Source: an uncultured Chloroflexia bacterium (GTDB taxonomy: Bacteria; Chloroflexota; Limnocylindria; QHBO01). From it: 64,000 nt of DNA. The translations under genes and the position numbers were made by a program. The stretch covers positions 303,917 through 367,916 of the forward strand of contig CAWIVT010000008.1 in the NCBI GenBank assembly GCA_963839635.1, in the 5' to 3' direction. The notes under the pieces were generated by a model that was not told the DNA's origin, made no database searches, and saw only the letters and a list, made by a program, of their open reading frames with translations. Positions 39,698 to 40,585 of the stretch are shown here, in pieces; position 1 is the first letter of the stretch; each line of letters begins with the position of its first letter.

Positions 39698-40585
39698 TCA
39701 ATCCGGGAACGTCCGGACCGCCGCGCCCACCGATTGCGGATCGCAGATTCCGCGTTCCGCCAAAGCCTCCAGGAACGCAGCTCGCTCTGCCAGCTCGGCC
39801 TCGAGGGCATGTGGCGCCATCCCCAGGCTGCCGGCGAGCACCGAGTACGCAGCCGGATCGTGGACGAACTGCCGGGAGGATCGGCCGCCATCGGACGGCA
39901 GCATCGGCGGCGTCGGAAGCCGTTGTGCGCCGGTAAGGCTCGGTGATCGGCCGCCCTCGATCGCACCAAGACGAACCGGCGCGAGCGCGCCCGCCCCGTC
40001 AAGCCGCAGGTGCCAGGCCTCTTCGACACGACGGTACATGCCGCTCGGCGTCTCGTAGGCCGAGTACTGGAGGTAGATCGTGAGTCCGGCGAGATCCGTG
40101 TCGGTGGCACCCAGGTCGCTGCGCAGCACCGCCAGCGCCTCGGGCAGCGAATCCGCGTGCATGGTCGCCCCCAACCCCCAGCCCTTGCCGGCGAGGATGA
40201 GCGCGCCGCGAGCAGCTCGGCCCCACACGTAGATCGGCAGGTGGTCGCTCATCTCGTTGATCAGCAGATACCCGGTGCCAGGCTCGATCTGGTCGAGCCA
40301 GTCGTACTCCTCCCACCAGCCGCGCACGAAGATGCCGGTCGTATCGTCGGGCAGGAAGTCGACCAGGGCGGAGAGGGCGGTCGTCTTACCGGCCTGCGGC
40401 GCCTCCGAGCTGAGCATGACGCTGCGGCGGCGGCTGACCACCGCCCAGAGGGTCGCCATCAACCGTGCGTCGATGGTCGGTGTGCCGATGAGCTCCACCG
40501 CGCTCATCGGTGTCGGTGGCGCCCAGTGATATCCCCACCAGCCCTCCGGGAAGCGGGAGAGCCAGGCTGCAAGGGCTCCGGTCAT
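39698..40585 (-). CDS. degenerate VirB11/CpaF/PilT-family P-loop protein lacking the N-terminal domain; likely catalytically impaired
   Basis: Walker A PQAGKTTALSAL. Aligns with the CpaF C-domain, but Walker-B/Glu box reads IYVWGRAARG instead of IILGEVRG. His-box reads GKGWGLGATMHADS instead of NTGHEGSMATIHANS. ATG at 40585 abuts the ALDH stop. Confidence 0.6.
   Translation of the reverse strand: MTGALAAWLSRFPEGWWGYHWAPPTPMSAVELIGTPTIDARLMATLWAVVSRRRSVMLSSEAPQAGKTTALSALVDFLPDDTTGIFVRGWWEEYDWLDQIEPGTGYLLINEMSDHLPIYVWGRAARGALILAGKGWGLGATMHADSLPEALAVLRSDLGATDTDLAGLTIYLQYSAYETPSGMYRRVEEAWHLRLDGAGALAPVRLGAIEGGRSPSLTGAQRLPTPPMLPSDGGRSSRQFVHDPAAYSVLAGSLGMAPHALEAELAERAAFLEALAERGICDPQSVGAAVRTFPD

Follow-up and report, generated by a model that had tools for sequence, protein, structure and literature searches.

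X296, a Chloroflexota protein with an archaeal-type secretion-ATPase domain and no N-terminal domain, and the linkage of the genes of its family to ChlI-like AAA+ and VWA genes

What does a short protein that resembles the ATPase domain of secretion motors do at a locus that holds no pilus or secretion genes? The question is raised by a gene in a 64,000-nucleotide (nt) stretch of contig CAWIVT010000008.1 (assembly GCA_963839635.1), which we call the window and which has a G+C content of approximately 70%. The gene occupies positions 39698-40585 on the minus strand, with its ATG at 40585-40583 and its stop codon at 39700-39698, and its translation gives a protein of 295 amino acids (aa), not the 296 counted in an earlier note on this DNA. 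The list of open reading frames (ORFs) does not show it separately: its frame runs without a stop codon through the upstream aldehyde dehydrogenase (ALDH) gene, so that the gene forms the 3' end of a 729-aa ORF. The protein, named X296 here, is a P-loop NTPase without an N-terminal domain, similar to FlaI and to archaeal GspE, and its host is a Candidatus Limnocylindria bacterium (Chloroflexota). Our analysis indicates that X296 is probably an archaeal-type motor ATPase, devoid of the N-terminal domain and likely still active, which would form the third subunit of a remodelling machine made of an AAA+ protein and a VWA protein.

Searches with the single sequence gave almost nothing. No Pfam model matched at E <= 10, NCBIfam returned only the P-loop region of FlaI and TadA, and the Protein Data Bank (PDB) gave a weak match to the archaeal GspE of Archaeoglobus (afGspE). 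Against the FlaI model NF058587 X296 scored 29 bits, over residues 25-82 only, and did not reach the curated cut-off of 550 bits. A family profile was therefore needed, and it was derived from an alignment (A1) of 73 family members with identities to X296 down to approximately 27%, which is the source of all counts out of 73 given below. The A1 profile matched afGspE (2oap) with an E value of 1.6e-36, FlaI with 5e-25 and CpaF with 3e-6, and the E values for PilT and VirB11 were about 1e-2 to 0.3. On afGspE the profile covers residues 232-295, comprising the linker, the P-loop and the first strand of the Asp box, and residues 344-499, which begin with the G of the GEVRG motif and take in the His box and the C-terminal helical domain that is specific to the clade. 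The Pfam model T2SSE (PF00437) is weakly matched by 29 of the 73 members, with a best E value of 4.4e-6, and PilB3_C by two; the T2SSE scores of two example members, 18.4 and 12.5 bits, are under the gathering threshold of 24.9 bits.

The structure predicted by AlphaFold2 with the family alignment has a predicted local distance difference test score (pLDDT) of 91.2 and a predicted TM-score (pTM) of 0.90. When this model was compared with the PDB by Foldseek, a check that the earlier note had proposed, the result was the secretion-ATPase superfamily: the top structures were 2oap, 4ihq and 4ii7, with E values of about 1e-14 to 2e-14 and query TM-scores (TMq) of 0.65-0.71 (0.71 for 2oap). CpaF structures reached a TMq of 0.53-0.59, and PilT, PilU, DotB and VirB11 approximately 0.32-0.40; the Foldseek probability was 1.00 for 2oap, 4ihq and 8rkd. 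The membership of X296 in the type II/IV secretion-ATPase superfamily, with a RecA-like C-terminal domain and a Walker A P-loop, is far above chance. The CpaF-like catalytic domain described earlier was thus correct at the level of the superfamily, although the nearest relatives are archaeal GspE and FlaI and not CpaF. As judged from these alignments, X296 is the C-terminal ATPase domain plus the C-terminal helical domain of the archaeal-type GspE/FlaI proteins.

As the earlier note had stated, the N-terminal domain is lacking. The alignments start at residues ~226-232 of afGspE and FlaI, and the (PAS-like) domain of approximately 225 aa is absent from X296. In hexameric secretion ATPases this domain packs on the neighbouring C-domain. 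In the X family its place is taken by some 20 residues with a near-invariant WWGxxW motif, of which W17 is found in 68 of the 73 members.

X296 has in common with afGspE (2oap) and FlaI (4ihq, 4ii7) the RecA-like C-terminal ATPase domain, the P-loop GKTT, the T-x-H-A of the His box and the helical C-terminal domain specific to the archaeal clade. These proteins are approximately 500 aa long with their N-terminal domain. X296 differs from them further in having around 16 residues fewer between the Asp box and Walker B, [RK]G in place of the Asp-box ED, an aromatic residue instead of the first His of the His box, and a conserved eight-residue insert after the putative Walker-B Glu. Unlike afGspE and FlaI, X296 has no FlaJ-/PilC-type platform gene and no pilin gene nearby, and its family is bacterial (Chloroflexota). 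CpaF/TadA, the ATPase of the Tad pilus (8rkd, 9e24), shares the superfamily and the core fold, but is much further from X296 than the archaeal clade, is alignable only in the P-loop and His-box segments, and has N-terminal domains and a tad-operon setting that X296 does not have. A precedent for a FlaI/VirB11-like ATPase domain outside secretion is PINA, the archaeal Holliday-junction ATPase (5yww, 5f4h), although its Foldseek match to X296 (E 4.5e-5) has a TMq of only 0.35 and the PIN and KH domains belong to PINA; for X296 there was no evidence of nucleic-acid binding. The X proteins of Limnocylindria also carry an insert of about 30 residues, GGRSPSLTGAQRLPTPPMLPSDGGRSS, at residues ~205-240 (the 39950-40000 region of the window), which is absent in other clades, well conserved within the class and predicted with low confidence (pLDDT 65-68).

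A 100% identical protein is recorded in public assemblies. At least 140 species-level genomes encode relatives that share 68-87% identity with it, and almost all of these genomes bear the label Candidatus Limnocylindria or Chloroflexota. Every source annotates the family as "hypothetical protein", and neither Pfam nor NCBIfam has a model for it. An exhaustive search of 1.84 billion cluster representatives identified 515 clusters of the X family at E <= 0.001 and 306 at E <= 1e-10, the clusters being defined at 50% identity. Fragments and a few chimeras aside, the length is approximately 250-310 aa throughout, which across the 515 clusters denotes a fixed short architecture and not a one-off truncation. 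One candidate for a domain fusion, P0229 (364 aa), was rejected: its N-terminal extension is of low complexity and is probably an over-extended ORF in GC-rich DNA. The named members come from Limnocylindria or Dehalococcoidia, and by sequence similarity X296 is a member of a previously unnamed family, so far seen only in Chloroflexota. The closest full-length relatives are archaeal and Chloroflexota acquired archaellum clusters from Archaea (PMC12488501), so that an origin of the family by horizontal transfer from Archaea, with subsequent loss of the N-domain, is plausible. Near-identical Limnocylindria-type loci (L001, L029, L035, L016, L050, L060, L064 and L079) are labelled Steroidobacteraceae, Binatia, Angelobacter or Dormiibacterota; the genomes that carry X loci of this type under such labels are probably mis-binned or mis-labelled metagenome-assembled genomes.

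Selection on the gene was estimated by the Nei-Gojobori method from 20 orthologues. The ratio of nonsynonymous to synonymous substitution rates (dN/dS) is approximately 0.1 against the nearest relatives, at a dS of about 0.9, and its median over 190 pairs is 0.23. Ratios in this range indicate that the X296 gene is strongly constrained and functional and is no remnant.

Does the protein still have the residues that a motor ATPase needs? Four features of the active site were located in the window:

40379-40405, minus strand: P-loop / Walker A, residues 61-69 (EAPQAGKTT), found from the sequence and aligned with GETASGKTT of afGspE and FlaI
40253-40270, minus strand: Walker-B-like strand YLLINE, residues 106-111, placed by the AlphaFold2 topology
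40220-40252, minus strand: family-specific insert, residues 112-122 (MSDHLPIYVWG), replacing the V-R of GEVRG
40154-40183, minus strand: His box, residues 135-144 (GWGLGATMHA), aligned with TGHASYSTLHA of afGspE and TGHSVMATFHA of FlaI

The Walker A motif PQAGKTT given in the earlier note is present, with G66-K67-T68-T69 at 40390-40379, and its GKTT aligns with the GKTT of afGspE, FlaI and CpaF. G66 is found in 73/73 members, K67 in 72/73 and T69 in 69/73. The Asp box (h-E-D-x-x-E) is not kept: VSIED of afGspE aligns with IFVRG of X296. By spacing, however, the last acidic residue of this box has a counterpart three positions further on, E92, which is Glu in 67/73 members and Asp in four, and G89 is conserved in 72/73. 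In the AlphaFold2 model the order of elements is strand 56-60, P-loop, helix 67-77, strand 83-86, strand 105-112, helix 122-133 and strand 137-143. This corresponds to beta1, Walker A, alpha, Asp-box strand, Walker-B strand, alpha and His-box strand, and would put E111 at the position of the catalytic Walker-B Glu, which in FlaI is E336. E111 is kept in 72/73 members and N110 in 59/73.

The replacement of GEVRG by WGRAARG, as proposed earlier, was right in that HMMER places G122 on the last G of GEVRG of afGspE and CpaF, but it missed the YLLINE strand, whose E111 lies 11 residues upstream of that glycine. Between the two residues stands a conserved eight-residue insert, S-D-H-L-P-x-Y-x-W, predicted by AlphaFold2 with a mean pLDDT of 94-98; S113 is found in 72/73 members, H115 in 64/73, P117 in 62/73, Y119 in 73/73, W121 in 67/73 and G122 in 70/73. 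The His box is changed, as had been recorded, from TGH to G-[YFW]: G135 is conserved in 72/73, and position 136 is Tyr in 52 members, Phe in 11 and Trp in three in place of the first His. The His of T-x-H-A, H143, is kept in 72/73. A Lys, a Glu and a His that stay near-invariant down to approximately 27% identity argue for retained chemistry. We infer that the active site of X296 has been remodelled and not abandoned, and X296 most likely still hydrolyses NTP through this remodelled site.

In order to identify possible partners, gene neighbourhoods were compared at 80 species-level Limnocylindria loci and at 87 loci of distant family members (28-50% identity to X296), the latter taken from contig look-ups and from metagenome loci detected with an 11-sequence sub-alignment of distant members. 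In the window, X296 has the following neighbours:

40588-42063, minus strand: ALDH gene (Pfam Aldedh, E 3.8e-171)
38147-39578, minus strand: ChlI/BchI-like AAA+ gene, which starts 119 bp downstream of X296 and has at least nine small indels

The ChlI-like gene, which the earlier note had placed directly downstream, is strongly linked. An AAA+ gene lies downstream on the same strand at 62 of 63 Limnocylindria loci with enough flank (within 200 bp at 46) and at 47 of 58 distant loci, where it abuts or overlaps the X gene in all cases; the overlap is often an ATGA, shared in L096 by the stop codon of X and the start codon of the AAA+ gene. Sister clades have a third partner that had been overlooked, an Rv0959-type VWA protein of approximately 670 aa, whose gene is found at 25 of 53 Limnocylindria loci and 33 of 37 distant loci. 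In these sister clades the VWA gene follows the AAA+ gene, with an overlap of 4 nt in L087, and in several Dehalococcoidia-type contigs it stands immediately or shortly before X, with no adjacent AAA+ gene. Linkage that survives deep divergence and a changed gene order points to functional coupling rather than to inherited synteny.

The ALDH gene behaves differently. Its stop codon TGA (40590-40588) is indeed 2 nt from the X296 ATG, as had been reported, and an ALDH gene lies upstream on the same strand at 39 of 60 Limnocylindria loci, with gaps of 5-4041 bp of which only five are shorter than 100 bp. At distant loci it is found in 0/57, and the 2-nt junction is specific to the immediate relatives of the window. 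ALDH is a local neighbour, not a conserved partner, and was rejected as a member of the system. A search for conserved ALDH/VirB11-like/ChlI-like triads had been suggested; the conserved unit is X with the ChlI-like AAA+ gene and the VWA gene, and the triad with ALDH is not one. The absence of secretion and pilus neighbours from the window extends to its relatives: no canonical GspE, CpaF or FlaI gene, searched as an internal reference, was found in the window or in the 167 loci, and no gene for a platform protein (GspF, PilC, TadB or FlaJ), a pilin-like protein or secretion in the window neighbourhood or the gene-called loci. The X locus stands in a conserved core synteny of response regulator, histidine kinase, ALDH, X, AAA+ and GGDEF-EAL genes, and its inheritance has been vertical in no fewer than 140 species, with identities of 68-87%.

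The AAA+ partner has 465-476 aa and matches the Pfam models AAA_5, Sigma54_activat, Mg_chelatase and AAA_3. Its NCBIfam matches, to BchI, BchD and cobaltochelatase, are all weak, its bpMoxR match is below threshold, and its only sequence relative in the PDB is ChlI (8osf, E 1.5e-9). Walker A reads GERGQAKS. In the genes compared (L168 6007-7437, L013 8952-10373 and L087 8910-10307), Walker B reads FSLNE or FALNE, aligned to LYVDE of ChlI. On these matches the protein belongs to the ChlI/MoxR clade. In the VWA protein a helical N-terminal region is followed by a long coiled coil rich in Gln, Glu and Met, and by a C-terminal VWA domain with a DxSxS metal-ion-dependent adhesion site (MIDAS); it matches Pfam VWA_2, and precomputed annotation adds Mb0984_helical and Rv0959_3rd. 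Asn-Glu is thus the Walker B pair of the AAA+ protein (FSLNE/FALNE) and of the putative Walker B of X (LLINE; window 40253-40258, N110-E111). The usual Walker B is Asp-Glu in AAA+ proteins and Gly-Glu in secretion ATPases, and the Asn-Glu is kept in two deeply separated clades.

Pairs of the Rv0958/Rv0959 type are conserved in Actinobacteria, including Mycobacterium tuberculosis, in which Rv0958 adjoins Rv0959 and is annotated as a possible magnesium chelatase. The putative link of the AAA+/VWA pair to Rv0958/Rv0959 comes from the Pfam names of the VWA partner together with this adjacency. A published list gives Rv0958 as a magnesium chelatase that contains a sigma-54 interaction domain (PMC7092591), and in an affinity purification-mass spectrometry study its orthologue in M. 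smegmatis showed no DNA association; in the literature searched we found screens only, and no functional study of the pair. In the AAA+/VWA pairs ChlI/ChlD, CoxD/CoxE, NorQ/NorD, CbbQ/CbbO and RavA/ViaA, the MIDAS of the VWA protein tethers the AAA+ ring to its target, and ATP hydrolysis remodels that target, often for the insertion of a metal cofactor (PMC7159879). The X module of the sister clades resembles the ChlI/ChlD- and MoxR/VWA-type pairs, and Rv0958/Rv0959, in combining a ChlI-like AAA+ protein with a VWA/MIDAS protein. However, its VWA protein is without the AAA+ module found in ChlD, the locus has no subunit similar to ChlH or CobN, and the Walker B of its AAA+ partner has Asn-Glu, not Asp-Glu. 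A third subunit derived from a secretion ATPase was not found for the described AAA+/VWA pairs in the literature searched, and the survey of vWA-MoxR systems makes no mention of a PilT-, VirB11- or FlaI-like partner (PMC7159879). For the combination of X, AAA+ and VWA genes no description was found in the same literature, in agreement with the earlier remark that no described system of such a composition was known.

From the homology, fold, loss of the N-domain, residue conservation, purifying selection and gene linkage of X given above, we propose the following explanation. The X family would have kept the RecA-fold and helical C-terminal domains of GspE/FlaI, lost the N-terminal domain and gained the WWGxxW motif. 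It would drive neither a pilus nor secretion, and its gene would be the third of a module with the genes of the ChlI-like AAA+ protein and the coiled-coil/VWA (MIDAS) protein. By analogy with ChlI/ChlD, CoxD/CoxE, NorQ/NorD and CbbQ/CbbO, the AAA+/VWA pair may be an ATP-driven remodelling or cofactor-insertion chaperone, and X a second, RecA-fold, nucleotide-dependent NTPase subunit that would interact physically with the pair, acting on it or with it in the cytoplasm. Hydrolysis by X would use K67, E111, H143 and E92 together with the S-D-H-L-P-x-Y-x-W loop. A wider idea falls a little short of probable and is put forward tentatively: in Chloroflexota an archaeal-type pilus or archaellum motor ATPase, stripped of its N-domain, may have been recruited as the dedicated third ATPase of a cytoplasmic ChlI-like AAA+/VWA machine. 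The outcome would be a complex for remodelling or cofactor insertion that has not been described before, with three components and two motors (RecA-fold plus AAA+), and with the mycobacterial Rv0958/Rv0959 pair as its two-component core. Almost all that is known of the secretion-ATPase superfamily concerns hexameric, membrane-associated motors of pili, archaella and secretion systems. If true, the explanation would provide a clear example of how a motor domain can be put to new use in the cytoplasm, and the third partner in Chloroflexota may help to identify the client or the reaction of the Rv0958/Rv0959-type pair.

Several observations weigh against a role of X296 as an active third subunit. 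The VWA gene is absent within 8 kb of X in the window's own clade and from the 64-kb window, and 14 of 62 loci of this clade carry unrelated genes (1-3.8 kb) between X and the AAA+ gene. A subgroup of seven loci (L084, L093, L122, L126, L134, L137 and L165) has neither partner within 7 kb, and its only recurring neighbour, a convergent HAD hydrolase, is uninformative. Judging from the Rv0959 naming, the AAA+/VWA pair also exists without X, so that X would be accessory and not core. At the active site, the first Gly of GxxxxGK is Glu in the window's lineage (Gly in 27/73 members), and the ED of the Asp box, the first His of the His box and the Arg of GEVRG are all lost, so that hydrolysis could be weak or absent. 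Finally, the model topology is the only basis on which E111 is assigned as the Walker-B Glu, and this assignment stays topological because the central segment (residues 80-128) is not alignable to solved structures, its sub-profile giving no match to them at E <= 10.

The earlier note suggested that X296 is a nucleotide-binding, non-hydrolysing pseudo-ATPase, and on this view it would be a regulatory or adaptor subunit in an ALDH/VirB11-like/ChlI-like unit. The changes of the Asp-box ED, the first His-box His, the GEVRG Arg and, in this lineage, the first P-loop Gly agree with that view, and so do two further facts, namely that the missing N-terminal domain supplies part of the active-site interface in hexameric relatives and that the ALDH stop is so near the X start in the window. 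We regard it as distinctly unlikely. The Glu of the putative Walker-B strand, the Lys of Walker A and the His of the His box, each in 72/73 members, would not be expected if catalysis had been given up; E92 (67/73) and the strong purifying selection also speak against it, and the ALDH gene is missing at 57/57 distant and 21/60 Limnocylindria loci, with gaps of up to 4 kb where it is present. Alternatively, X296 could be a client of the AAA+/VWA chaperone, as an oligomeric NTPase whose assembly state or cofactor loading is controlled by the pair, in the manner of ChlH with ChlI/ChlD or Rubisco with CbbQ/CbbO, or a P-loop metallochaperone-like helper. For known AAA+/VWA pairs, a third protein that serves the pair is usually encoded close by (PMC7159879 and established knowledge), the linkage is tight and includes translational coupling, and the RG..E on the strand after the P-loop (G89 and E92) offers, as a speculation, an acidic residue that might serve as a MIDAS ligand. 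The data do not, however, separate a client from a co-motor or a nucleotide-gated adaptor, and beyond H115 and H143 X has no conserved Cys/His metal-binding cluster; we consider this alternative unlikely but worth keeping in mind.

A vWA-MoxR-type conflict or defence system, with X as sensor or effector, is very unlikely. Such systems are common in Chloroflexota and Actinobacteria and have been proposed to act in conflicts (PMC7159879), and mobile-element genes lie near some of the loci. In contrast, PADLOC-DB 2.0, which has no model for any of the three proteins, gave no meaningful match: none for X, marginal RtcR-type matches for the AAA+ protein (E ~2e-3) and coiled-coil noise against JetC for the VWA protein. 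Moreover, domains of the effector type are absent, the AAA+ protein resembles ChlI and has its bpMoxR match below threshold, and the locus belongs to the vertically inherited core synteny of at least 140 species. Decay of a pilus or archaellum ATPase gene into a functionless remnant would explain why X296 is truncated relative to every characterised family member, and the archaellum clusters that Chloroflexota took from Archaea would provide the source (PMC12488501). This has a negligible probability and is already refuted as far as sequence analysis can do so: the dN/dS is 0.1-0.23, hundreds of clusters have the same architecture and a conserved new N-terminal motif, the fold is confidently predicted and the operon partners are conserved.

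The AAA+ gene of the window is broken. The intact 473-aa orthologue of L013 matches window 39571-38150 with three out-of-frame stretches. These are caused by at least nine small indels, located by comparison with four relatives and with a sister assembly of 99% identity:

~39575: 2-nt deletion directly after the start codon
~39325-39329: +1
39233: -2
39160: -1
~39100: -1
~38803-38810: +1
~38750-38756: +2
~38638-38644: +2
38567: +1

The indel clusters that follow the start-codon deletion each sum to a multiple of 3, and the conserved AAA+ peptide is still readable in the shifted frames. In the sister assembly (ENA ERZ25039530 contig_79, L168), which shows 99% identity over 10.9 kb, the AAA+ gene is intact at 476 aa. 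The window and this assembly differ by substitutions that cluster within the initial ~1.1 kb of the AAA+ gene and mostly affect third codon positions, and X296 is identical in both. A PAS-GGDEF-EAL gene at 35290-38062 (minus strand) is likewise split in the window, by a 1-nt insertion at ~36061, and intact at 906 aa in L168. The simplest reading would be that the broken tract is a strain-variable or recombined stretch with a poor consensus, that is, an assembly artefact; alternatively, the AAA+ gene may be truly pseudogenised in this strain.

The region between X296 and the AAA+ gene has the following features, of which the palindrome and the hairpin are inverted repeats:

39579-39697, minus strand: intergenic region with a palindrome, a GC hairpin and a -10-like box
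39647-39683: 37-nt palindrome GTCAAGGGATATATCACTAGCTGATATGACGGTTGAC, between X296 and the AAA+ gene
39605-39627: GC hairpin, between X296 and the AAA+ gene
39594-39586, minus strand: -10-like box TGCTACGCT, 7 nt before the AAA+ ATG

The palindrome resembles an operator or an extended -10 box (TGATATAT). Its half-site TGATATNNNNNYTGAC occurs four times in the window against 0.11 expected, also at 8199-8214 (minus strand) and 10406-10421 (plus strand), and is probably the "motif copy 4" of the earlier note. The palindrome is not conserved at that position in related loci, and similar half-sites are present in L026 and L030. The junction of X and AAA+ is also an insertion hot spot in Limnocylindria, for instance in L005, L007, L014, L016, L019, L022, L029, L039 and L045, the inserted genes encoding LuxR/GerE regulators, a 1,232-aa zinc-ribbon-cyclase-AAA_16-TPR protein, a GSDH-cupredoxin protein and a camelysin-like peptidase. 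A -10-like TGnTAnnCT box is found in the same place, 6-10 nt upstream of the AAA+ start, in L006, L009, L012, L013, L024, L030, L032 and L036, and in relatives of the window's clade it mostly reads TGGTAGGCT. A box so near the start suggests that in this clade the AAA+ gene is transcribed from a promoter of its own, into an mRNA with no leader or a very short one; elsewhere in the family the X gene and the AAA+ gene abut or overlap.

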